DNA from: Escherichia phage JS98
Length of the DNA: 64,000 nt
Reading direction: 5' to 3' (one strand)
Sequence record: NC_010105.1
Part shown: piece by piece, positions 10,204 through 51,270 of the stretch
How positions within the stretch are numbered: the stretch's first letter is position 1
Layout of the letters: every line of letters starts with the position of its first letter
Notes under the pieces: generated by a model
Database searches by the model: none
What the model was told of the DNA's origin: nothing
The model's input: the letters and a program-made list of their open reading frames with translations, nothing else
Translations under genes and position numbers: made by a program

Positions 10204-11484
10204 ATGGCAAAGATTAACGAATTACTGCGCGAGTCAACAACTACTTCTAGCAACTCATTGGGTCGCCCTAATCTTGTTGCTTTGACCCGTGCTACAACCA
10301 AATTGATTTACCGTGATATTATTGCTGAACAACGTACTAGCCAGCCTATTGCTGCATTGTATGGTGTCAAATATCTTACTCCTGATAATGAATTTAGCTT
10401 CCAAACTGGTGCCGTTTATGGCGGTGAAGTTGGTTCTAAAGACCGTGAAACTATCCCAGAACTCACAGATAAGGCCCAGGCTATTGCCAAGGGTGAATAT
10501 TTCAAGTATCAGAACATAGTTTATAAGGCTCTTCAAGCAAGCCCACTCGCATCCACTAGCGCTACAGAATTGGCTGAGGCCCTTCAAGAAGGTTTGGTGT
10601 CATTAACATGTCGTCTGGTTCCTGATGCGGCTCACACAGAGAAATTCGAAGCAGGTGATGTTGAAATTAGTAATGCAGTATTCCAGGTTAATAAATGGAA
10701 CGCACCTGTTAAGTCTCGTAAACTTAAAACCGCTTTGACTGTAGAACTAGCCCAAGACATGGAATCCAATGGCTTTGACGCCCCTGCGTTCTTAGAAGAC
10801 CTTTTAGCCACTGTAATGGCTGATGAAATCAATAAAGACGTACTACAATCCTTGATTACCGTATCTAAACGTTACAAAGTAACTGGTGTATCTGATAATG
10901 GTATTATTGATTTGTCCTATAATTCCGCCCCAGAAAGTGCACGTAAATTATATGAAATGGTTTGTGAGATGAATTCTGAAATTCAGAAAACCACTTCTTA
11001 TTCAGGTACGTTTGTTGTCGCATCTAGTCGTGCTGCTGCTATGCTCGCTGGTTCAGGTTGGTTGAAACATAAACCAGAAGATGAAGCTTGGCTCCCAGAA
11101 ACTGCTTACGGTTATTTGATTAATGGATTGCCTGTATTCTGTGATGTTAATAGTCCTTTAGATTATGTTATCGTAGGCGTTAAAGAAGATTACGGCGGTA
11201 ATGAAGTAGTTGGTTCTATTTTCTATGCTCCATATACCGAAGGTCTGGATTTAGACGACCAAGAACATGTTGGTGCGTATAAAGTTATTGTAGACCCTGA
11301 TAGTTTACAACCGGCTATTTCTCTGATGGTTCGTTATGCACTTTCAGCAAACCCATATACCGTTGCTAAAGATGATAAAGAAGCTCGTGTTATAGACGCA
11401 ACTAATATGGATTTAATGGCAGGTCAGAGTAACATGTCTTATCTGCTTGGTGTTAAACTTCCTCCGATTATTTACGAGGCATAA
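10204..11484 (+). CDS. 24: Capsid vertex protein gp24 (copy 1, closest to T4 gp24)
   Basis: 426 aa; MAKINELLRESTTT...GRPNLVALTRATTKLIY matches T4 gp24. Confidence 0.9.
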   Translation: MAKINELLRESTTTSSNSLGRPNLVALTRATTKLIYRDIIAEQRTSQPIAALYGVKYLTPDNEFSFQTGAVYGGEVGSKDRETIPELTDKAQAIAKGEYFKYQNIVYKALQASPLASTSATELAEALQEGLVSLTCRLVPDAAHTEKFEAGDVEISNAVFQVNKWNAPVKSRKLKTALTVELAQDMESNGFDAPAFLEDLLATVMADEINKDVLQSLITVSKRYKVTGVSDNGIIDLSYNSAPESARKLYEMVCEMNSEIQKTTSYSGTFVVASSRAAAMLAGSGWLKHKPEDEAWLPETAYGYLINGLPVFCDVNSPLDYVIVGVKEDYGGNEVVGSIFYAPYTEGLDLDDQEHVGAYKVIVDPDSLQPAISLMVRYALSANPYTVAKDDKEARVIDATNMDLMAGQSNMSYLLGVKLPPIIYEA

Positions 11485-12768
11485 ATGAAAAAGATTAATG
11501 CATTAATACAAGAATCAACTTTGACGGCGGCCAACCAGGTCGCCCGTCCTAATCTTCTTTCATATACCCAGGCAACTAATAAAAGAATTTTTAAAGCCCT
11601 TGTTGCTGAACAAAAAACTACTCAACCTGTTGCAGCATTATATGGTGTCCGTGTTTTAAACCCAGACGATAAAATGACTTATCTCGGCGGAGCCACTTTT
11701 GCAGGCGAAATTGGTATGTTCGAACGTAAAAACATTCCTGAGTTCACCGATAAAGACGAAGCATATGCTGTTGGCGATATGTTCCAATTCGAAAGTGTGG
11801 TTTTCAAGGTATTAGAAGCTTCTCCGTTTGCAGGAACAACTGAAACCGATTTGAGTGAAGTTATTTCAGAAGCTATTGCCGCGGGCCATATTCGTATGAT
11901 GTCTGATGCAGCCTTTACCAATAAATTTGAAAAAGGTCATCCTGAGATTGCTGAAGCAGGGTTCCGTATTGATAAGTGGCAGACTGAAGTTAAATCGCGT
12001 AAACTTAAAACTTCTTTGACTGTGGAACTGGCCCAGGATTTAGAATCCAACGGGTTTAATGCACCGGACTTTATAGACAATATTTTGGCTATTCAAATGG
12101 CTGAAGAAATTAATAAAGACGTATTACAGTCCTTAATTACAGTAAGTTCTCGTTTTAAAGTCCAAGGAGTTTCTGAGAAAGGTGTCTTGAACTTAACAGA
12201 CCCACAATACGATAACGCCCAAGACCGAGCACGTACCTTGTATTACTATATGTGTGAAATGAATTCTGCTGTTCAACGCCAGACTTCGTTTGCAGGTACT
12301 TATGCAGTAGCTTCTTCTCGCTGCGCTGCTATTTTAGCTGCATCCGGTTGGGTTGAGAAAAAAGAAGACCAAGACGAATTAGCTTATGGCGTATTAAAGA
12401 ACGGTCTACCACTTTATGCTGATATGAACAGCCCGTGTGATTATGTTATTGTCGGTGTAAATGCTCAGATGGGTGAAGGGCAGACGGTCGCATCTTTGTA
12501 TTATGCGCCTTATACGGAAGGGCTCGAAGAGGTTGATGATGAAGGTGATACTTCAGTAGGTGAATTCAAGGTTATTGTAGACCCGGATTCATTGCAACCT
12601 ACCATATCTTTATTGGCTCGGTATGCATTGACTGCGAATCCTTATACCGTCGCTAAAGACGACAAAGAAGCTCGTATTATTGATGGTGCGGATATGGACA
12701 AAATGGCTAATCAAAGTCAATTGAGTTCTTATCTTGGTGTAAAACTTCCTCCATTGGATAAAAACTAA
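11485..12768 (+). CDS. Capsid vertex protein gp24 paralog (copy 2, divergent)
   Basis: 427 aa, immediately downstream; alignable to copy 1 along full length with conserved blocks (KSRKLKT..TVELAQD, INKDVLQSLITVS, VIVDPDSLQP, ANPYTVAKDDKEAR). Confidence 0.85.
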   Translation: MKKINALIQESTLTAANQVARPNLLSYTQATNKRIFKALVAEQKTTQPVAALYGVRVLNPDDKMTYLGGATFAGEIGMFERKNIPEFTDKDEAYAVGDMFQFESVVFKVLEASPFAGTTETDLSEVISEAIAAGHIRMMSDAAFTNKFEKGHPEIAEAGFRIDKWQTEVKSRKLKTSLTVELAQDLESNGFNAPDFIDNILAIQMAEEINKDVLQSLITVSSRFKVQGVSEKGVLNLTDPQYDNAQDRARTLYYYMCEMNSAVQRQTSFAGTYAVASSRCAAILAASGWVEKKEDQDELAYGVLKNGLPLYADMNSPCDYVIVGVNAQMGEGQTVASLYYAPYTEGLEEVDDEGDTSVGEFKVIVDPDSLQPTISLLARYALTANPYTVAKDDKEARIIDGADMDKMANQSQLSSYLGVKLPPLDKN

Positions 12769-25997: not shown

Positions 25998-28124
25998 CTA
26001 CATTTTGAATTTATTTGGTAAAGAAGAGATGTCCAAAGATGCAGCAAGGATTTCCATAGCCTCATTACTTTCTGAAACAGATTCTGAAACTAGGAATTCT
26101 TTAAACCCGTTCATCAATTTAACTTCACCGGTTTCCATCAGATGGTCACCATCGTAAACGGACTCACTGAGTTCTGAAGGAGATGTCACTGTAGCTTCCA
26201 TAAGGTATTTGTGAGATACTCTATCATTCATAGCAAAAGCCGCTACTTTATCAACCTTCAACAATAATCCTCGCGGAAGGATAATTTCTGCTTCTTCGGA
26301 ATATTCTGTAAGGTCACCAGGAGCGATAACTTTAACTGCTTCAGCACCTCGAATAACCATACCGATTTCAGCAATCCTGTCTGCAGGGCCTTCAGGTGCA
26401 ATTGGATTACCGAACTCGTCTTCTTCCCATTCTACCTCTTCATCATCAACTTCGCCTACATCAGATGAACTACCACTGGCTAATTTAAACAACTCATCAG
26501 CGGAGGATAAAGAACCTTCATCACCAACAAAAACTGCTTGGTTGTCGAGGGCCATATAATTTTTACCAAATTCGCCAAAGATATTAGGCTTTAATGAAGC
26601 AGACACAAAGTTCTTAAAGTAAAATGTTTTGTTATCAATATTATGGCGCAGAATTTTGTATGGTAAATCCTGACCACGATACAAAATAGTACCCTTAGGA
26701 AGTTTAATACCCTTGGTAAATGCTGAGTCTAAATCCTTAATCAATTTAATAGCTGTTGTATTGTTTTCGGATTCAGGTTTACCTAAAAGGAATAAGTTCA
26801 TAGGAGCATATTCAGCCGCACAATATTCAATAATGGCATTGCTTTCGTCTTTGGTCAAGCCCTTAGGTTTAATGAGCTCGCCTGAATAAGCATATGCATC
26901 GCTAATAGAATCGTTAATCAGTTTATAAACGGCTTCCATAGCGAAAGCAATTCGGGATGCTTTCTCTGAAGGAGACCCCTGAAAACGGGCACTCAGGTTA
27001 TTAACAATTCTCTTAATAATATCCAGACTATTGGTAGTATTGATTTGAGAAAGGCCACTTAAAAGTCTATCGACTTCCGTATTAAAAAATGCCATATTAT
27101 TAGAGTAAATTTCAAACCCTTGTTTATCTCTATTAGCATAATTTAGTTTAAATTTACTATCAGTCATTAAAGCGTGCGTGAGAGCAATGGTGTATCTAAA
27201 GTTGGCAAGGTCCTCACTCTTAGATTTAAACTGAGAGGCCTGACGCATTTTAGTAATAGCACCTTTTTTAAAGTTCTGACTAATCTGCTCAATACCTTCG
27301 TTCTCAGGGCCTTCGGCCGAGTGAACAGGGACAGAAGCTTCAAACTCGTTATAAACCTGCAATTCTTTAGGTGATAAAGTTTCAGGTTCGGCAGTAGAAT
27401 ACTGCGCTGCTGCAGCCATACGACGGGAAATCTTAGTACGAGAAATAACAGCCTTATCGGTACGTTTCTCTTCAACCTGTGCAATAGATGCTGCTACGGC
27501 TTCGACCTTACTTACAGCCTGGCCGGTTTTCTTAGAAACATAAACTTCACCGACTTTAGACTCAACCTTGGTATAAAGGTCCGCATCAATTTCAGGCATA
27601 CCCTTGATATCTTCGATATTAGTGCCACGACGTGCTAAAAGAACGTATGTATGTTTACCACTAAACTGGAACATATCATCGACAACTTTAAACTTACCAC
27701 CGGTACGGGCCATCGCCAAACGAGCTAATACACGCTGAACAGTAGGGCCTTTACCTTTCATTTTCTTGGTAGGGAAACGGAATAAAACCGCATCCATTTT
27801 AAGTTTATTTACTTGTTCGTATATCGTATCGAAAATAGTATTCAATGTACCAAGTGGGTCGGAACCAAGGCCACCTTTGAGTTCAGCCGGGGCACCCTTG
27901 CTCGACAAACTCATTAAAATAACATGGACATATTTGTCGCCTGGCTTAACCATTTTAATAGCGTCTCCTTGAGACGCATAAGATACCATACGAGCAACCA
28001 GGTTATCGTTACCCGGTGCATGGATAGAGAAAATCTGTGGAATACCGGAACCCGGTTTAAGATTTGTTACTGGATAGTTTTTAGCGGAATCACTATCAAA
28101 AACCTCGTTTAAATTTTCCATCAT
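25998..28124 (-). CDS. Alt-family ADP-ribosyltransferase, paralog 2 (708 aa)
   Basis: Shares N-terminal (M.E.LNEVF.S) and C-terminal blocks with the upstream alt: RGQ/RAQ, FYFKNFVSASL, EIILPRGLL.K.DK. Confidence 0.85.
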   Translation of the reverse strand: MMENLNEVFDSDSAKNYPVTNLKPGSGIPQIFSIHAPGNDNLVARMVSYASQGDAIKMVKPGDKYVHVILMSLSSKGAPAELKGGLGSDPLGTLNTIFDTIYEQVNKLKMDAVLFRFPTKKMKGKGPTVQRVLARLAMARTGGKFKVVDDMFQFSGKHTYVLLARRGTNIEDIKGMPEIDADLYTKVESKVGEVYVSKKTGQAVSKVEAVAASIAQVEEKRTDKAVISRTKISRRMAAAAQYSTAEPETLSPKELQVYNEFEASVPVHSAEGPENEGIEQISQNFKKGAITKMRQASQFKSKSEDLANFRYTIALTHALMTDSKFKLNYANRDKQGFEIYSNNMAFFNTEVDRLLSGLSQINTTNSLDIIKRIVNNLSARFQGSPSEKASRIAFAMEAVYKLINDSISDAYAYSGELIKPKGLTKDESNAIIEYCAAEYAPMNLFLLGKPESENNTTAIKLIKDLDSAFTKGIKLPKGTILYRGQDLPYKILRHNIDNKTFYFKNFVSASLKPNIFGEFGKNYMALDNQAVFVGDEGSLSSADELFKLASGSSSDVGEVDDEEVEWEEDEFGNPIAPEGPADRIAEIGMVIRGAEAVKVIAPGDLTEYSEEAEIILPRGLLLKVDKVAAFAMNDRVSHKYLMEATVTSPSELSESVYDGDHLMETGEVKLMNGFKEFLVSESVSESNEAMEILAASLDISSLPNKFKM

Positions 28125-30212
28125 TTACCCTTGGATGAATTTTTCTGGTATGCCATAGAGGTCTATGCATGAAGCCAAAAGAGGCAGTACGTCAAACCGT
28201 GTAGATTTAACAAATGAATCAAAAGATACAGGGCTTTCGGAAGTATCGAAGTCATCTTGGTATACGACCAACTCACCAGTTTCCATTAGTACGTCACCAT
28301 CATACACTACAGATTCTTGAAGCTCATCTGATGTCATAACTTCAGCTTGAATAAATTTATTGTTAGACACCGCCCCAGAACCAGTATTGGCTGATGCATC
28401 CACGATTTTATCTATTTTTACAAGTAGCCCGCGTGGTAAAATTATTTCCTTTTCGTTGGCATGCATGCTTAATTGGCCAGGATAAATCACGTTAACCTTA
28501 TGAGCGCCACTAATAGCCCAGCCAACATCAACACGGATTTGATCCGGTGCATACATATGTGTACGCACTTGACTAGCCGAGATGGTAACGCCTTCGTCAT
28601 TATTATCAATGTTTAATTCTTTTCGAACATCATCGGAAGCAAGACCAATAGCCGCATTCTCTTTAAAGCCACCAAAAATGATTGGAGCCAATGAGGTTGA
28701 AACATAGTTTCTAAAATAGAATACCTTATTTTTAACTAATGCTTCGTAGATAGGCGCGCGCAAAGATTGTGCTCTATAAACCATTATTCCTTCAGGTAAA
28801 CGGTCACCATTTTTAAAGGCAGAATCCATTCCATCAATAGCACGTTTAACTTCGCTTTCGTCCAAAACTTCATAAAAGCCCGGTTTATAACGGCCAAGAA
28901 GGACATTGTTAATATCAATATAAGCTGAAGAGGCGTATTCTCTGATAGCTCGTTTTTCTGCAAGTGTATATTGTTTAGGGTCTCGAGATGTTGTTATATT
29001 AAGAATTTCTCTAGTTGATTCTATAGCGTATGTATACATTATCTTAGACAAGAATGAAGACTTACGTTGTTTCCATACTCTTTCACTGTTTTCATTCAAT
29101 ATCTCTTTTTCCAAATGGAAATTGTCTTTTCTATAATCTTCAAACCAATCACTTTTAATAGATTCTGCGATTTCATTAGCAGCTTCAACAAAGGCGGCTA
29201 AAGCTTTAACTGACGTGGTTTTTTCATTTTTAATTTTTTTGACAAATTTTTCTAAAGAAGAGTTAATTTTATCACCGTAAGAAACTTCATCCGCAAATTT
29301 AAATGAATCATCCATAGTATTATAAATTTTAAAATCAATAGCCGTAGCCAGCTTATCCTTAGCTGTTTCGGATGATAATGATAATTCAACTTCGGCTGCT
29401 TGTGGAATTAATTCCGCCGTAGCAGGCGCACTGAACTCATTGGCAGTTTGTTCATATTTCTGAAATAATTCACCTTCATTACGGTCTGCTTCTAATGACT
29501 GGCTTGCCGCAATCGCACGACGAGAAATCTTAGTCTTGGTTATAACCATTTTATCAGTGCGACGTTCTTCAACTTTAGCAATACTGCCGGCAATAGCGGT
29601 TTCTTTAGTAACCTGAGCGCCTTCTTTTTTAGAAATATAAACTTCACCAACATCAGAATCTACCTTAGTATATAATTCGGCATTAATTCCAGGCATACCT
29701 TTGATATCTTCGATATCAGCTTGTTTACGAACTACTAGGATATAAGTATGTTTACCGGTAAATTGGTACATGGCTGGAACTACTTTAAAACGTCCACCGG
29801 TTTTCTGTGCTACCAAACGTTGGATAATCCGTTGGACAATAGGTCCTTGTCCTTTCATTTTCTTGGTTGGAAAACGGAACATCACAGCATCCATACGAAG
29901 CTTTTTAACTTGTTCGAATACTACGTCGAAAATGGTATTAATAGCATCAATAGGAGTAGGGCCTAATCCACCTTTAAGTTCGGCTGGAGTACCTTTAGCT
30001 GATAAACTCATCAAAATAACGTGGGCATATTTATCACCTAATTTAACCTGTTTAATAGCATCGCCTTCAGAGGCATAAGATACCATACGAGCAACTAATT
30101 GGGATTCGGCGTCGCCAATCTTCCAAATCTGGGGTACTTTAAGTTTTGGGTTTAAGTTTACAGTAGGCAGGGTGCCTTCGGACTCAAACACCTCATTCAA
30201 TTGTTCGGTCAT
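28125..30212 (-). CDS. alt: Alt ADP-ribosyltransferase (capsid-packaged, injected), paralog 1 (695 aa)
   Basis: Position upstream of gene 30 as in T4; R-S-E type ART motifs (YRAQ, FYFRNYVSTSL, EKEIILPRGLLVKIDK). Confidence 0.85.
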   Translation of the reverse strand: MTEQLNEVFESEGTLPTVNLNPKLKVPQIWKIGDAESQLVARMVSYASEGDAIKQVKLGDKYAHVILMSLSAKGTPAELKGGLGPTPIDAINTIFDVVFEQVKKLRMDAVMFRFPTKKMKGQGPIVQRIIQRLVAQKTGGRFKVVPAMYQFTGKHTYILVVRKQADIEDIKGMPGINAELYTKVDSDVGEVYISKKEGAQVTKETAIAGSIAKVEERRTDKMVITKTKISRRAIAASQSLEADRNEGELFQKYEQTANEFSAPATAELIPQAAEVELSLSSETAKDKLATAIDFKIYNTMDDSFKFADEVSYGDKINSSLEKFVKKIKNEKTTSVKALAAFVEAANEIAESIKSDWFEDYRKDNFHLEKEILNENSERVWKQRKSSFLSKIMYTYAIESTREILNITTSRDPKQYTLAEKRAIREYASSAYIDINNVLLGRYKPGFYEVLDESEVKRAIDGMDSAFKNGDRLPEGIMVYRAQSLRAPIYEALVKNKVFYFRNYVSTSLAPIIFGGFKENAAIGLASDDVRKELNIDNNDEGVTISASQVRTHMYAPDQIRVDVGWAISGAHKVNVIYPGQLSMHANEKEIILPRGLLVKIDKIVDASANTGSGAVSNNKFIQAEVMTSDELQESVVYDGDVLMETGELVVYQDDFDTSESPVSFDSFVKSTRFDVLPLLASCIDLYGIPEKFIQG

Positions 30213-33322: not shown

Positions 33323-33521
33323 TTATAATTTCAACATCAGCCCAATAACCATAACCCGGCAGTCGGTCTTCAATGGATAAACCACCATCATGTTTAGGCA
33401 TTTTAATTGTCATGATATAAGGTTCTAAATGGTCCGCCGTATGAGGAGAAACATCAGTCACACGATAAGTCACTTCAACCATTTCCGTACCTAACAATTT
33501 CTGAATCAGTTTCTTGACCAT
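33306..33521 (-). CDS. Hypothetical protein (71 aa)
   Basis: ORF in compact minus-strand early array. Confidence 0.4.
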   Translation of the reverse strand: MVKKLIQKLLGTEMVEVTYRVTDVSPHTADHLEPYIMTIKMPKHDGGLSIEDRLPGYGYWADVEIISVKDV

Positions 33522-33522
33522 A

Positions 33523-33717
33523 TTATCCTCGCTTCAAACATTTGATTACAGACAATTCAGAACCCATGCGAACGTCTTCAGTGCCATCGACCCATAGGAC
33601 CGTGTAGGCTTCTTTAATAGTAGCATTACCCAATTTAAAAGCAGGTAAAACCTTTGAAATCATACCAGGAATACCTACACCTTTTAACTGAACGGTTTGT
33701 GATAAGAATAGTTGCAT
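33523..33717 (-). CDS. Hypothetical protein (64 aa)
   Basis: ORF in compact minus-strand early array. Confidence 0.4.
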   Translation of the reverse strand: MQLFLSQTVQLKGVGIPGMISKVLPAFKLGNATIKEAYTVLWVDGTEDVRMGSELSVIKCLKRG

Positions 33718-34004
33718 TAGAACCTCATCTGGAATCCATGTGATTTAACATTACCGCCGTAGATGTCAGAAGTATTGACTTCGCGGGCGACACTTGGGTC
33801 GATGTTAATATCGCGGTTGAGCTTAGTGATTGCTAGGGTGTCACGACCATTGACTGTACGGAATTCTACTGGACAAACCACATCAGCATAGGCCTTAATG
33901 GATTCACGAGTAGGCTGTTTGTCAGCAGGAACATCTTTACCTGCCTTAGAGAAAACAACTTCACAGAAATTTTTACGAGTATCGAAATAAGTGGTCATAA
34001 ACAT
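33717..34004 (-). CDS. Hypothetical protein (95 aa from Met with GAGGA SD)
   Basis: ORF track 33717..34037; internal Met preceded by SD chosen. Confidence 0.45.
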   Translation of the reverse strand: MFMTTYFDTRKNFCEVVFSKAGKDVPADKQPTRESIKAYADVVCPVEFRTVNGRDTLAITKLNRDINIDPSVAREVNTSDIYGGNVKSHGFQMRF

Positions 34005-34018
34005 AATATTTTCCTCAA

Positions 34019-34036
34019 AGGAGGCCGAAGCCTCCA
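34019..34036 (-). other. Hairpin GGAGGC-cgaa-GCCTCC between ORFs
   Basis: 6-bp GC stem with CGAA loop directly after stop of 34046..34411. Confidence 0.4.
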
Positions 34037-34045
34037 TTTTTAAGA

Positions 34046-34411
34046 TTAGATATCAAATTCATTCAGAACTACATCAAAGATTGCTTCCAGGTGTTCAGGT
34101 TTAGCACGGTTGCTCAGGATGTGACGAATCCAGGTTTTAACCAGAAGCTTACGATTATCACCGTTCCAGCAAGGATGGGTACCTAAATCACGTTGACGGA
34201 AATCATCATCCAAAGCGATTTTAAAAGTAGAACCTTCCATAGTGATTGAAACCGTGATACCATTTTCAAAGCGCATATAAACGTAGTTAGGAGTCATGCA
34301 CTGTTCGATTTCGCACACTGTGCCGTTGTTGTGTTTCCACAGACAAATAACTTCAGAAGAACCAGCGATACCGTTAGAAACATATTTACGTTCGAAGTTG
34401 ATGTAGTTCAT
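34046..34411 (-). CDS. Hypothetical protein (121 aa), PeSL-flanked cassette ORF
   Basis: Preceded by early promoter/stem-loop and a leader identical to that of the next ORF. Confidence 0.5.
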   Translation of the reverse strand: MNYINFERKYVSNGIAGSSEVICLWKHNNGTVCEIEQCMTPNYVYMRFENGITVSITMEGSTFKIALDDDFRQRDLGTHPCWNGDNRKLLVKTWIRHILSNRAKPEHLEAIFDVVLNEFDI

Positions 34412-34447
34412 TTTATTCTCCAGTTTGTTTTCGTATTATTTGGTACA
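34409..34447. repeat. 39-bp direct repeat, copy 1 (identical leader/RBS/start of two adjacent ORFs)
   Basis: CATTTTATTCTCCAGTTTGTTTTCGTATTATTTGGTACA identical to 34815..34853. Confidence 0.85.
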
Positions 34448-34484
34448 GGTCTATAATAACACAACCTGTACCAAAGTAAAACAT
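34412..34484 (-). promoter_or_regulatory. PeSL-like early promoter with 12-bp perfect inverted repeat (TTTGGTACAGGT...ACCTGTACCAAA)
   Basis: IR arms 34439..34450 and 34464..34475 flank a -10-like TATTAT; TTTTAC -35-like 17 nt upstream. Confidence 0.45.
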
Positions 34485-34817
34485 TTATTTCACAACATTC
34501 CAATTTTTCATATCAAGTTTACCAACTTTTTTCATCTGAGCAATCAGACGTTCAGCACGTGTACGGGCATTAACGTAATAGAATTCACCAATTTTGTTTT
34601 CTTCAATACGGCCAGTAATTACAGTTTTCAGTTCATAAATCCAACCTGTAAAGAAGTTGTGAAGCTCGATGGTAAATGTGAAATCAGTACCCATACCTTC
34701 AGTTGTTTCAACTTCGATGATATCACCTTCAACTGCAGTCAGGACCCACATGGTTTCTTGATATTCACCGTTGAAACATTTAGCTTTAACAGATGCGTTC
34801 AGGTTTACAGTTTTCAT
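34485..34817 (-). CDS. Hypothetical protein (110 aa), PeSL-flanked cassette ORF
   Basis: ORF with same leader as 34046..34411. Confidence 0.5.
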   Translation of the reverse strand: MKTVNLNASVKAKCFNGEYQETMWVLTAVEGDIIEVETTEGMGTDFTFTIELHNFFTGWIYELKTVITGRIEENKIGEFYYVNARTRAERLIAQMKKVGKLDMKNWNVVK

Positions 34818-34853
34818 TTTATTCTCCAGTTTGTTTTCGTATTATTTGGTACA
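34815..34853. repeat. 39-bp direct repeat, copy 2
   Basis: Exact copy of 34409..34447. Confidence 0.85.
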
Positions 34854-34887
34854 TGTCTATAGTATCATGCCTACCGGAGATGTATAC
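34818..34887 (-). promoter_or_regulatory. PeSL-like early promoter (GTATAC-N17-TACTAT) driving 34485..34817
   Basis: -10 TACTAT at 34859..34864 with conserved GCATGATACTATAGAC core. Confidence 0.4.
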
Positions 34888-34904
34888 CCTTTTTTTAAAG
34901 ATTT

Positions 34905-34931
34905 AGAAACAAAAATGGGACTCCGAAGAGT
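34905..34931 (-). terminator. Rho-independent terminator after 53-aa ORF (GGGACTC-ttcg-GAGTCCC + U-run)
   Basis: 7-bp stem, UUCG loop, ATTTTTGTTT on minus strand. Confidence 0.7.
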
Positions 34932-34939
34932 CCCATAAC

Positions 34940-35101
34940 TTATGCCTGAGGCTTACCAAAGCAAGCAGCATCTGCACGCAATACTGCACGAGCACGAGCT
35001 TGAAGCTTATCAACTACCTGATTGATACGCTTGTTGGACGCACGCTTGTAACCAGCGCGTTTAGAGGTACCGTCAACTACTTTAACTTCTTTCTTAGCCA
35101 T
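34940..35101 (-). CDS. Hypothetical small basic protein (53 aa, below ORF-track cutoff)
   Basis: Hand-translated MAKKEVKVVDGTSKRAGYKRASNKRINQVVDKLQARARAVLRADAACFGKPQA; followed by strong terminator. Confidence 0.4.
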   Translation of the reverse strand: MAKKEVKVVDGTSKRAGYKRASNKRINQVVDKLQARARAVLRADAACFGKPQA

Positions 35102-35453
35102 TTTTAAATCTCTTAAATTAGGATGCAGGACTTATTGACATTGCCTGCGCAAGCCCTCAAGGGGAACATAGGTTTTAGATATTTAACGACAGGATAACCA
35201 TAAACCTCGTCATCATAGCTCTTATCTGTTGCACACCGTTAGCTTAAAGGTTCCGGGTTCGATTTCTCGAGGATAAGATATATACTGATGGATATATAGG
35301 CCTTGAGGCGTACTCCCGATTGGCCATCACCTCGGGGTAGCATGCACTTGCCGCTATAAAATACATTCAAGAGGTACACCGTAAAACTGCTGGGGTCTTA
35401 AAACTATAATGATTCGCAAATCATTAATCAGACAGTTCGACGGCTCCTCGATT

Positions 35454-35702
35454 TTACTTCAGGGTAATAATAAAATGACGTACTGCTTTACGAGCTGCTG
35501 AAGCCAAAGGCTTAGCATATTTCAGTTCATCTTTTGCTTCCAGTTCAGCAGCCAGAGTAGCCTGAGCAGGATTAAGATGTTTGAAATAACGCAGGATTTC
35601 CAGTGCTTCGGCTTCAACATCAATAGATGCGCCGTAGTTTTCGTGACCGTTGTTCCAAGCGTTGCGTTGCAGTTCAAGAGCGTGATTCAGATGTTTGTTC
35701 AT
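35454..35702 (-). CDS. rIII: rIII lysis-inhibition accessory protein
   Basis: MNKHLNHALELQRNAWNNGHENYGASIDVEAEALEILRYFKHLNPAQ... matches T4 RIII; start at internal Met (ORF track to 35756); 82 aa. Confidence 0.82.
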   Translation of the reverse strand: MNKHLNHALELQRNAWNNGHENYGASIDVEAEALEILRYFKHLNPAQATLAAELEAKDELKYAKPLASAARKAVRHFIITLK

Positions 35703-35853
35703 TTTAAATTCTCGATTCGAGATAAAGATTGGTGGACACGTTCTTCTGAATTTCACTTCCTTTCGGCAAGTCTCTCAGTTGTAGTCCACCGCTTAGGATT
35801 AGCTAACCCCATACACCAGCAAAGCTCTGTATGACATTAGCCAATCCATATTA

Positions 35854-35861
35854 TTATTTAT
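35854..35861 (-). promoter_or_regulatory. Late promoter (TATAAATA on minus strand) between gene 31 and rIII
   Basis: Plus-strand TATTTATA directly after gene 31 stop. Confidence 0.4.
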
Positions 35862-35862
35862 A

Positions 35863-36186
35863 TCACTTATAAAGACACGGAATAGCTTTATAGTGACAGG
35901 TAACGAATTTCTGTTTAATTTCTTTAGGCTGTTTAATACCCAATGCAACTAAAGGATGTGGCACGTTAGCAATCTTACCAACAGGAAGTGGAGTCAAATC
36001 GCCTACTTCACAAAACCCTTCAGGGACATCAGGTCCTACAGAATAAATTTCACAAAGTTCAGGGATTTCACCTTGATGAAGTTTGCCAATAACGATACCA
36101 GATGCAGTAGTTTCTTCATCGCCAGCTTGTTTTGGTTCGGAAACGAGAATAACATATTCTCCGACCGCTTTAATAGGAAGTTCCAT
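35863..36186 (-). CDS. 31: Co-chaperonin gp31 (GroES analogue)
   Basis: 107 aa; [22 protein letters not shown]...[33 protein letters not shown] matches T4 gp31. Confidence 0.92.
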
Positions 36187-49891: not shown

Positions 49892-50119
49892 TTATTTTTG
49901 AATTAAGCCCATATAAAATTCAGCGTCTTCAGCATGCATACCATCGCAATATTCATCAGCCATAAAGCGGGTAAGGTCTTCAAGAGGACCTTGAACTTCA
50001 ATTTGCATACTACAGAATTGTGTGTCTTTGATATAAGTCATAGTCAAAGAAGGATAACGATTACGGATAACTTCGTAAGTGTATTCAAAATCAACGATAT
50101 CAATATTAACCTTAGCCAT
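49892..50119 (-). CDS. Hypothetical protein (75 aa), PeSL-flanked
   Basis: ORF with own early promoter. Confidence 0.5.
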
Positions 50120-50182
50120 TTTATTTTCCTCACTCGTTAGTTGATAGGTCTATAGTATCATGCCTATAGACCTTGTAAACAT
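50120..50182 (-). promoter_or_regulatory. PeSL-like early promoter (GTTTAC-N17-TACTAT, AGACCTATCAACT)
   Basis: -35 at 50175..50180, -10 at 50152..50157; 9-bp IR GGTCTATAG/CTATAGACC. Confidence 0.55.
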
Positions 50183-50443
50183 TTATTTTTGAATTTTATC
50201 AAGCCATTTACCAAGCTTAATCATTTCTTTGGTAGCTTTTTCCATACTTCTGAATTTAACCAGTAAGGGTTGAGCATCAACACCCATAACTAAGGTGGTT
50301 ACAAGACTATGTTCGCCTACAAGCCATAACGAATACGTTTGGATATCGAGGCCGTAATTTCGGTCTTTATGAACTCGTACACCCATCACTTCAAATTTCT
50401 CACTGGCTTTTTCTACTGCATCCAGGAAATCATCTTTAGTCAT
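50183..50443 (-). CDS. Hypothetical protein (86 aa from internal Met)
   Basis: ORF track to 50506; start chosen abutting upstream stop. Confidence 0.4.
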   Translation of the reverse strand: MTKDDFLDAVEKASEKFEVMGVRVHKDRNYGLDIQTYSLWLVGEHSLVTTLVMGVDAQPLLVKFRSMEKATKEMIKLGKWLDKIQK

Positions 50444-51203: not shown

Positions 51204-51270
51204 TTTTATTTCCTCATGTAGTTGATAGGTCTATAGTATCATGTTTAAAGGCATTGTAAACCATTAAATG
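51204..51270 (-). promoter_or_regulatory. PeSL-like early promoter (GTTTAC-N17-TACTAT, AGACCTATCAACT)
   Basis: -35 at 51256..51261, -10 at 51233..51238, GAGGA SD. Confidence 0.55.

Follow-up and report, generated by a model that had tools for sequence, protein, structure and literature searches.

Two adjacent genes of Escherichia phage JS98 open with the same leader and start region, and the proteins that they encode are unrelated. How such a pair arises is the question raised by this locus. The window analysed is a stretch of 64,000 nucleotides from sequence record NC_010105.1. The original prediction, made from the letters alone, took the repeat for the mark left by recombination at regulatory cassettes, by which gene contents are swapped. 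The explanation favoured here is close to that reading: the repeat is very probably the 3′ half of two tandem T4-type PeSL (promoter-early stem-loop) cassettes, which exchange sequence with each other and act as crossover sites. In the available text of Arbiol et al. 2010 (PMC2839356), PeSLs are described as cassettes of T4-type phages, made of an early promoter and a stem-loop, ending in a Shine-Dalgarno sequence (SD) and an ATG and located in hyperplastic regions.

The JS98 locus is that of a Dhakavirus, a T4-like phage, with 98.9% identity to Dhakavirus MN04. It is placed between ligase gene 30 and rIII/31; all its genes are of unknown function, and its content differs among genera. Its genes and the downstream junction are the following:

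34020..34035, minus strand: promoterless junction to gene 30.6, formed by a GGAGGC-UUCG-GCCUCC hairpin and the UUUGAGGAAAAUAUUAUG that follows it.
34046..34411, minus strand: gene 30.7 homologue, 121 aa, Pfam PF06919 (Gp30.7).
34485..34817, minus strand: gene 30.8 homologue, 110 aa, Pfam PF06019 (Gp30.8), the module that is swapped or deleted in relatives.
34940..35101, minus strand: gene 30.9 homologue, 53 aa, upstream of the first (P30.8) cassette, taken from the ORF list and from its annotation as 30.9 in relatives.

The two ORFs originally proposed (34046-34411 and 34485-34817, both on the minus strand) are confirmed with their lengths of 121 and 110 aa, and the hairpin-GAGGAAA-ATG arrangement at the 30.6 junction is common to all genera examined. 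The 30.7 and 30.8 proteins are unrelated by BLASTP, by profile comparison and by predicted fold. BLASTP yields no alignment at E≤100, hhalign of the two family profiles gives a probability of 0.1%, and the confident structure models differ, with 30.8 mostly beta plus one helix and 30.7 built of seven strands followed by three helices. The earlier statement that the two products show no similarity is upheld at all three levels. A literature search on 30.7 and 30.8, limited in its reach, returned no relevant match. A scan of IMG/VR with the 30.7 protein gave 13 close loci only, and the wider sampling of relatives was taken from the GenBank phage collection.

The repeat itself lies upstream of both genes, which are on the minus strand:

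34407..34461, minus strand: repeat copy A, with the −10 box, start region (3′ stem arm), leader, SD and ATGAA of 30.7.
34813..34867, minus strand: repeat copy B, with the −10 box, transcription start region, 5′ leader, SD and ATGAA of 30.8.

The exact 39-bp repeat first reported over start codon, RBS and leader is real (34409-34447 equals 34815-34853) and slightly longer than claimed. Exact identity spans 41 nt (34407-34447 and 34813-34853), including TTCAT (ATGAA on the coding strand), and near-identity extends over 55 nt at 95%, with 3 mismatches (34407-34461 and 34813-34867). The copies are direct repeats 406 nt apart, and each contains a −10 box, the start region, the entire 5′ UTR, the SD and the first five coding bases. 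Across 818 phage records no genome has the cassette at more than two sites, which makes it a local pair; a dispersed mobile repeat of the MITE-like or homing kind is ruled out by this count and by the lack of any nuclease or transposase gene in the locus.

On the coding strand, each copy falls within a predicted early promoter and its leader:

34859..34887, minus strand: predicted early promoter P30.8, with −35 GTATAC at 34887-34882, TGn at 34867-34865 and −10 TACTAT at 34864-34859.
34453..34480, minus strand: predicted early promoter P30.7, with −35 TTTACT at 34480-34475, TGn at 34461-34459 and −10 TATTAT at 34458-34453.
34817..34827, minus strand: SD of 30.8, GGAGAAUAAAA, identical to the 11-nt RegB/S1 target consensus.
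34411..34421, minus strand: SD of 30.7, GGAGAAUAAAA, identical to the same consensus.

P30.7 was found by a promoter scan, together with its TG element, and its arrangement (TTTACT-16-TATTAT with TGn) fits exactly the T4/PST-type PeSL promoter consensus TTTACW-N17-TAYWAT given in the available text of Comeau et al. 2014 (PMC4122927). P30.8, (G)TATACA-16-TACTAT with TGn, has one mismatch to that consensus; its −35 GTATAC is weak, and it falls below the threshold of a simple sigma-70 scan. P30.8 aligns with other early-promoter-like repeats of the JS98 window, close relatives carry GTTTAC or GTGTAC at the −35 position, and the fPS-65 annotation has a predicted early promoter at the homologous site. 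An A-tract lies directly upstream of P30.8 (34891-34897), and AT-rich segments precede both promoters (CTTTAAAAAAAGG before P30.8, GAAATAAATG before P30.7). With its UP-like A-tract, −35 box, TGn and −10 box, this layout resembles the T4 early promoters (Hinton 2010, PMC2988021). In the annotations of other workers, the homologous sites of TuIa, MP1, fPS-65 and Merlin carry promoters, terminators and stem-loops.

Both cassettes have a leader of about 30 nt that ends in GGAGAATAAAATG, comprising the SD and the start codon. The RegB/S1 endoribonuclease of T4 inactivates early mRNAs, and its target consensus is the 11-nt GGAGRAYARAA, single-stranded, in early mRNA (Durand et al. 2006, PMC1702504). 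JS98 carries this consensus exactly, as the SD of both genes, so that both are putative RegB sites, and the site is predicted to be unpaired in the fold of the P30.7 cassette. From these motifs, P30.8 and P30.7 would be active promoters, and RegB would cleave at both SDs.

Comparison among genera bears on why the two leaders are alike. Within a genome, the two cassettes are 69-86% identical in most genera; the cross-genome background is 64%, and the T4 value is 60%. Dhakavirus and Gualtarvirus MP1 each have a stretch of 39 nt, counted back from the ATG, over which their two cassettes agree exactly, and the stretch of one bears no sequence relationship to that of the other. Shorter stretches, of 21-29 nt, are common to both cassettes in Marfavirus, Moonvirus, Gelderlandvirus and Klebsiella phage RCIP0102. 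This pattern indicates recurrent homogenisation, long leader identity having arisen repeatedly across genera, an outcome that gene conversion, or the Campbell-type re-integration of an excised circle, would be expected to produce.

Rather than recombination, selection for common regulation might maintain this identity, through translation initiation, the RegB/S1 site or the binding of a regulator. Most genera do conserve the proximal block GGAGAATAAAATGAA, which matches the RegB/S1 consensus, before each of the two genes, and 30.7 and 30.8 may need to be co-regulated. However, T4 and its close relatives have both genes behind leaders that share only 11 nt, just the SD-ATG block, so long identity is not required for function. 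The shared segment is identical within a genome and unrelated between genera, which is the signature of concerted evolution, and chimeric cassettes exist in nature. Selection for a common leader is therefore an unlikely explanation of the repeat.

Each cassette is associated with a stem-loop:

34905..34936, minus strand: terminator-like hairpin from a terminator scan, AUGGGACUC-UUCG-GAGUCCCAU followed by UUUUUG, the stem-loop of the 30.8 cassette, upstream of P30.8.
34439..34475, minus strand: P30.7 stem-loop, with 12-bp arms at 34475-34464 and 34450-34439 and a 13-nt loop that holds the −10 box.

As RNA, the hairpin of the 30.8 cassette reads GGGACUC-UUCG-GAGUCCC with a U-run, and the annotations of wV7, G2285, Merlin and fPS-65 have a terminator at the homologous site. 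The arms of the P30.7 stem, TTTGGTACAGGT and ACCTGTACCAAA, form a perfect 12-bp inverted repeat. A perfect 12-bp palindrome had been reported to follow the first repeat copy; its perfection stands (34439-34450 and 34464-34475), and its position is corrected, the first arm lying mostly inside the repeat and not after it. The 5′ arm occupies the promoter spacer and the 3′ arm covers the predicted start region. The RNA fold has a ΔG of −18.8 kcal/mol and a z of −3.7. RNA initiated at P30.7 lacks the 5′ arm, so the hairpin could form only in transcripts that arrive from upstream (30.8), or in the DNA as a cruciform. The stem is AT-rich and, having no U-tract, is not a canonical terminator of the kind described for PeSL stem-loops; action as a strong terminator is unlikely and a classical terminator role is doubtful. 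The best guess is an attenuator or a 3′-end stabiliser on RNA read through from 30.8. The second repeat copy (34845-34856) retains 11 of the 12 positions of the 34439-34450 arm, and its partner arm is absent. Because P30.8 thus carries most of the P30.7 3′ arm without anything to pair with, the 30.7 leader may have been the donor of the homogenised segment.

The P30.7 hairpin is conserved as a structure and not as a sequence. A strong hairpin is present at the P30.7 cassette in ten lineages including JS98 (ΔG −16 to −23.5, z −3 to −7), as assessed by folds and shuffles for each genome, since the stem register shifts between genera. In an eleventh lineage, Klebsiella phage RCIP0102, the stem was seen by sequence inspection only, outside the fold scoring. 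The P30.8 cassettes have weak folds only; in JS98 the P30.8 spacer UCUCCGGU can pair with the SD ACUGGAGA (ΔG −11.6, z −2.2).

This conservation is what weighs on a further proposal, in which a dimeric DNA-binding regulator of P30.7 uses the palindrome as its operator and the repeat carries a half-site. A perfect 12-bp inverted repeat centred on the −10 box would suit such a regulator, and the available text of PMC2839356 includes a speculation by the PeSL authors on a DNA-binding protein. The arms TTTGGTACAGGT/ACCTGTACCAAA are common to Dhakavirus, T4 and Mosigvirus, but they are wholly different in EcS1 (GATTGAGTGT/ACACTCAATC), Potts1 (GGTGTAGGAGTA/TACTCTTACACC) and Morganella phage MP1 (ACTGAGGTTA/TAACCTCAGT), where the pairing is nevertheless kept. 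The Potts1 stem includes one G-U pair, tolerated only on the sense-strand RNA, and the 5′ (spacer) arm of Karamvirus, Moonvirus and Gelderlandvirus has the SD region as its pairing partner. That pairing persists while sequence and position change points to a structure in the nucleic acid and away from a protein site, and an operator is quite unlikely.

Promoters inside hairpins are a known mode of control in the T4 genes e, soc, 49 and I-TevI, where the known cases involve late promoters. The P30.7 hairpin resembles them in that its 5′ arm lies upstream of the start, so that RNA from the gene's own promoter would be open and read-through RNA folded; in Karamvirus, Moonvirus and Gelderlandvirus the resemblance extends to the pairing of the SD. 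In JS98, by contrast, the hairpin ends 17 nt upstream of the SD, which is not sequestered. Elsewhere in the JS98 window, the −10 box of a second promoter (gene start 50119) is covered by a stem of similar kind.

Close relatives record what happens to the gene between the cassettes. The 30.8 gene exists in two allele classes with about 39% protein identity: a short class (110 aa), present in JS98 and T4, and a long class (about 116-122 aa), the common form in other genera. The long class (122 aa) occurs in seven distinct phages among about 43 Dhakavirus-type records (IME08, ABTNLsp5, CLBP2, IME341, CLB_P2, dhaeg and Ec2-ASingh), with flanks 95-100% identical to those of JS98. Aligned with dhaeg or L008, JS98 shows 95-100% identity on both sides and 45-60% only across the 30.8 ORF. 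At sites that distinguish JS98 from Mosigvirus JS09, and on the assumption of a JS09-like donor, the donor-like tract of dhaeg corresponds to JS98 34828-34481 only. The left crossover is placed in the leader, immediately 5′ of GGAG, and the right one inside GTTTACTTTGGTACAGGTT, which is the −35 box plus the 5′ stem arm of P30.7. The exchanged tract in dhaeg thus appears to end inside both cassettes.

Deletions have left similar marks. Ten of the sequenced phages have no 30.8 gene: TuIa, which is filed under Tequatrovirus, and nine with Mosigvirus records. Among the 40 best Mosigvirus records, 8 match the 30.8-less junction of G2285 in one piece, and the remaining 32 have an extra ~444 nt, exactly one cassette-plus-gene period. 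Three different types of 30.8-less junction are found, all between the −10 box and the ATG. In the first (G2285, AV115, AV109 and TuIa), the switch from P30.8-type to 30.7 sequence lies in the SD-ATG block; in the second (SQ17), it lies in the TATAGACTTGTACCA block (−10/+1); in the third (JM10), the 5′ half of a Mosigvirus P30.8 is joined, at the −10 box, to a leader identical to that of JS98, and the 30.7 gene is of the Dhakavirus type. The three junction types thus record no fewer than three independent events, one of them between genera. No loss of 30.8 is seen among about 43 sequenced Dhakaviruses, though the repeat is longest there, and when the predicted 30.8-less Dhakavirus junction was built and searched, no Dhakavirus record matched it. 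The lack of any sequenced Dhakavirus without 30.8 suggests that the gene is maintained by selection against its loss; otherwise, recombination at the repeat would have to be rarer than the model implies.

Insertions occur at the same place. In Dhakavirus C6 an extra 118-aa ORF (ORF219), together with its own terminator, sits at the 5′ edge of the cassette, after the 30.9 terminator and before P30.8. Six further genera or lineages (Kagamiyamavirus, Marfavirus, Karamvirus, Gelderlandvirus, Moonvirus and Klebsiella phage RCIP0102) carry one or two additional genes in the interval from 30.8 to 30.7. The search of relatives for alternative ORFs at the repeats has therefore produced the swapped 30.8 allele in 7 Dhakaviruses, 10 phages without 30.8 and the C6 insertion. 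Swap, deletion and insertion at the cassettes support the original reading of exchanged gene contents, and the relatives show neither an invariant pair of ORFs nor the duplication of a single gene.

How the repeat is built, how relatives differ around it and where their junctions fall are shown directly by the sequences. The repeat might still be a relic of tandem duplication of one gene and its promoter, followed by divergence of the coding regions. Such an origin would account for direct repeats 406 nt apart, each before an ORF of about 110-120 aa. In other genera, the genes that follow 30.8 and 30.7 are weakly similar (BLASTP E 0.002-0.006), and an ancient duplication of a two-gene unit is possible. 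Yet the 30.7 and 30.8 products themselves give no BLASTP alignment, an hhalign probability of 0.1% and unlike topologies in the predicted models, and a 100%-identical non-coding segment beside dissimilar coding regions cannot come from uniform divergence, which makes duplication highly improbable. A match due to chance or to a generic early-promoter consensus can practically be dismissed: JS98 early promoters do share about 20 nt around the −10 box, but the identity continues for 30 nt past the promoter consensus, to the ATG, the 39-mer is found with up to 3 mismatches at two places only in the 64-kb window, and 0 of 100 dinucleotide-preserving shuffles yield any 39-mer match.

The preferred explanation, exchange between tandem PeSL cassettes, would operate as follows. 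P30.8 and P30.7 would be tandem early-promoter cassettes with the repeat as their common 3′ half. Each would consist of an AT-rich segment, a −35 box, TGn plus −10 box, a leader of about 30 nt, an SD equal to the RegB/S1 consensus and an ATG, and each would be tied to a stem-loop, the terminator hairpin upstream of P30.8 or the 12-bp stem around the P30.7 −10 box. Direct repeats at a distance of 406 nt, in a phage as highly recombinogenic as this one, would be expected to exchange sequence. Gene conversion may have made the −10-to-ATG segment identical in the JS98 lineage, or the route may have been excision and Campbell-type re-integration of a circle carrying 30.8, in which re-integration would duplicate the crossover region. 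The same −10-to-ATG segment would then serve as the crossover site for deletion, replacement and insertion of genes between or beside the cassettes. Such exchange presumably uses the general T4-type recombination machinery.

A bolder version treats the P30.8/P30.7 pair as a dedicated, structure-assisted site at which 30.8 repeatedly excises as a circle of about 400 bp and re-integrates, making it a mobile gene cassette. Exchange might start at the hairpin or cruciform around the −10 box, which a structure-specific nuclease could, for instance, cleave. This version is doubtful. If true, it would explain the recurrent re-homogenisation of the pair in several genera, and the occurrence of 30.8 homologues, preceded by similar promoter cassettes, both at other loci (Aeromonas Biquartavirus) and in unrelated phages (Phapecoctavirus).

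The exchange of sequence between PeSL cassettes has precedents. Modular shuffling mediated by PeSLs is already published, according to the available text of PMC2839356 and PMC4122927. The sequence features of a PeSL are all found at JS98: a promoter, an AT-rich segment, a stem-loop, the SD and ATG of a small gene, a hyperplastic location, and indels or replacements. As in the described cases, so far as the available text of the PeSL papers goes, the cassettes stand before small genes of unknown function, and the stem-loop lies between or over the −35 and −10 boxes (JS98 P30.7) or upstream (P30.8). In both, insertions, deletions and replacements in close relatives end at cassettes, with crossovers between the −10 box and the ATG. 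JS98 differs in that its adjacent cassettes are identical over the 41 nt to the start codon, the same pair being homogenised with unrelated sequences in several genera, and in that its P30.7 stem is AT-rich, without a U-tract and unlikely to be a strong terminator. The available portions of PMC2839356 and PMC4122927 make no mention of concerted evolution of one fixed cassette pair, and that of Comeau et al. 2014 (PMC4122927) mentions neither 'gene conversion' nor the 30.9-30.7 locus.

The Botstein-Campbell 'linker' model and integron-like exchange, both invoked in the available text of PMC2839356, share with this locus the principle that short conserved flanks direct homologous exchange of a module; in the linker model, as here, exchange is targeted to a harmless and correctly regulated site. 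Unlike an integron, the JS98 locus has no evident dedicated integrase or attC-type site.

The mechanism is thus one already described, and the locus reveals no new one; its contribution is the recurrent homogenisation of one fixed pair, together with mapped natural junctions. The locus is an unusually clean, sequence-level natural record of the shuffling of small accessory genes in T4-like phages, comprising one swap with both crossovers in cassettes, three independent deletion junctions, one insertion and recurrent leader homogenisation. It supports the PeSL/linker model with many more genomes than could be drawn on when it was proposed. The frequent exchange of 30.8 suggests a role in host interaction.

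A separate observation concerns a 130-nt non-coding element between rIII and 30.9 (35223-35352, minus strand). Rfam (E≤1) and tRNA scans of 33500-36000 and 34800-35800 gave no match, and no E. coli homologue of the element was found. It is absent at this site in T4, RB69 and JS09, and is 85-98% identical across Dhakavirus, some Tequatrovirus, Moonvirus, Karamvirus and Marfavirus (94-98% in all sampled records but one), genera whose proteins are only about 50% identical. Kagamiyamavirus EcS1 has a more diverged copy. The consensus fold of eight sequences comprises 7 helices with 39 pairs in all, and a hairpin in it has a GAAA cap. Changes on both sides are seen in ten of the pairs, against 2.5 ± 1.1 in shuffles (0/500), and slid controls give 0-2 such pairs. 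The element is a candidate for a new structured RNA, unannotated and supported by covariation.

The 30.8/30.7 region, where twin early-promoter cassettes precede minus-strand genes 30.8 (34485-34817) and 30.7 (34046-34411), is enlarged in several related phages. One or two added genes of ~160-175 aa lie between 30.8 and 30.7 in Kagamiyamavirus, Marfavirus, Karamvirus, Gelderlandvirus and Moonvirus and in a Klebsiella phage, RCIP0102 (loci L019-L023 and L025). At these loci a "UUCG hairpin - GAGGAAA - ATG" junction links the added genes, as it does 30.7 and the gene following it, and the products of the added genes show weak similarity to those of the genes after 30.7 (30.6A-type; BLASTP E 0.002-0.006). 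The arrangement hints at either an ancient duplication of a two-gene unit or a second exchangeable slot.

The same kind of junction bears on the start of the neighbouring gene 30.6.

33717-34037, minus strand: gene 30.6, mechanical ORF

The ATG that opens this ORF (34037) sits within the UUCG hairpin, and the PHROG match to the ORF starts only at residue 12. The real start is likely the ATG at 34004, which follows GAGGAAA and gives a protein of 95 aa, the same as in T4.

Deletions have also reshaped the 30.3-30.8 region, with endpoints outside the cassettes. In Mosigvirus G2285 (locus L018, 2001-2225), 30.7 is truncated to 74 aa, with homology limited to residues 1-39; in the database proteins P0014 and P0109, a Gp30.3 domain (PF08010) is fused to fragments of 30.7 or 30.8. 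The short 30.7 and the Gp30.3 fusions are further cases of such deletions.

Homologues of 30.8 occur at other sites as well. Aeromonas phage B614 (Biquartavirus) carries one at a different locus, adjoining primase/helicase genes, and another is found in Klebsiella phage ZCKP1 (Phapecoctavirus), which is not T4-like. In both phages, a promoter-like cassette precedes the homologue, and its start region is shared with the cassette of the neighbouring gene.

Product names in the record of phage ESCO10 (OM386655.1) are unfit as functional evidence because, compared with other records, they appear shifted or wrong; rIII, for instance, is labelled "thymidine kinase", 30.6 "valyl-tRNA synthetase modifier" and 30.8 "ABC transporter ATP-binding protein".

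Upstream of the 30.8 cassette, beyond gene 30.9, lies a conserved element.

35223-35352, minus strand: non-coding element of 130 nt between rIII and gene 30.9

Identity across several genera is 85-98% (mostly 94-98%); T4, RB69 and JS09 have no such element at the corresponding site. The consensus fold comprises seven helices, 39 pairs and a GAAA tetraloop, and 10 pairs show changes on both sides, vs 2.5 ± 1.1 in shuffles (0/500). A weak T4-type promoter (TTTTAC-17-TATTTT) lies at 35386-35358, its predicted start coinciding with the 5′ end of the element, for which no Rfam match, tRNA or E. coli homologue was found. The element is a candidate for a new structured RNA or for a structured leader of 30.9.

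Other repeats are present in the window, among them a second cassette pair.

50138-50185 and 51219-51266, minus strand: early-promoter cassette pair ahead of two genes with starts at 50119 and 51203

The two are 85% identical across 48 nt, at a spacing of 1081 nt. Because a 10-bp stem (AGGTCTATAG/CTATAGACCT) spans the -10 box of the first (50138-50185), they are regarded as a further pair of the PeSL (promoter-early stem-loop) type.

10611-12752 and 27528-30095: long direct repeats that have diverged (two pairs)

The repeats measure 197-292 nt, are 70-83% identical and lie 1281-1287 nt and 2097 nt apart; presumably they are paralogous genes.
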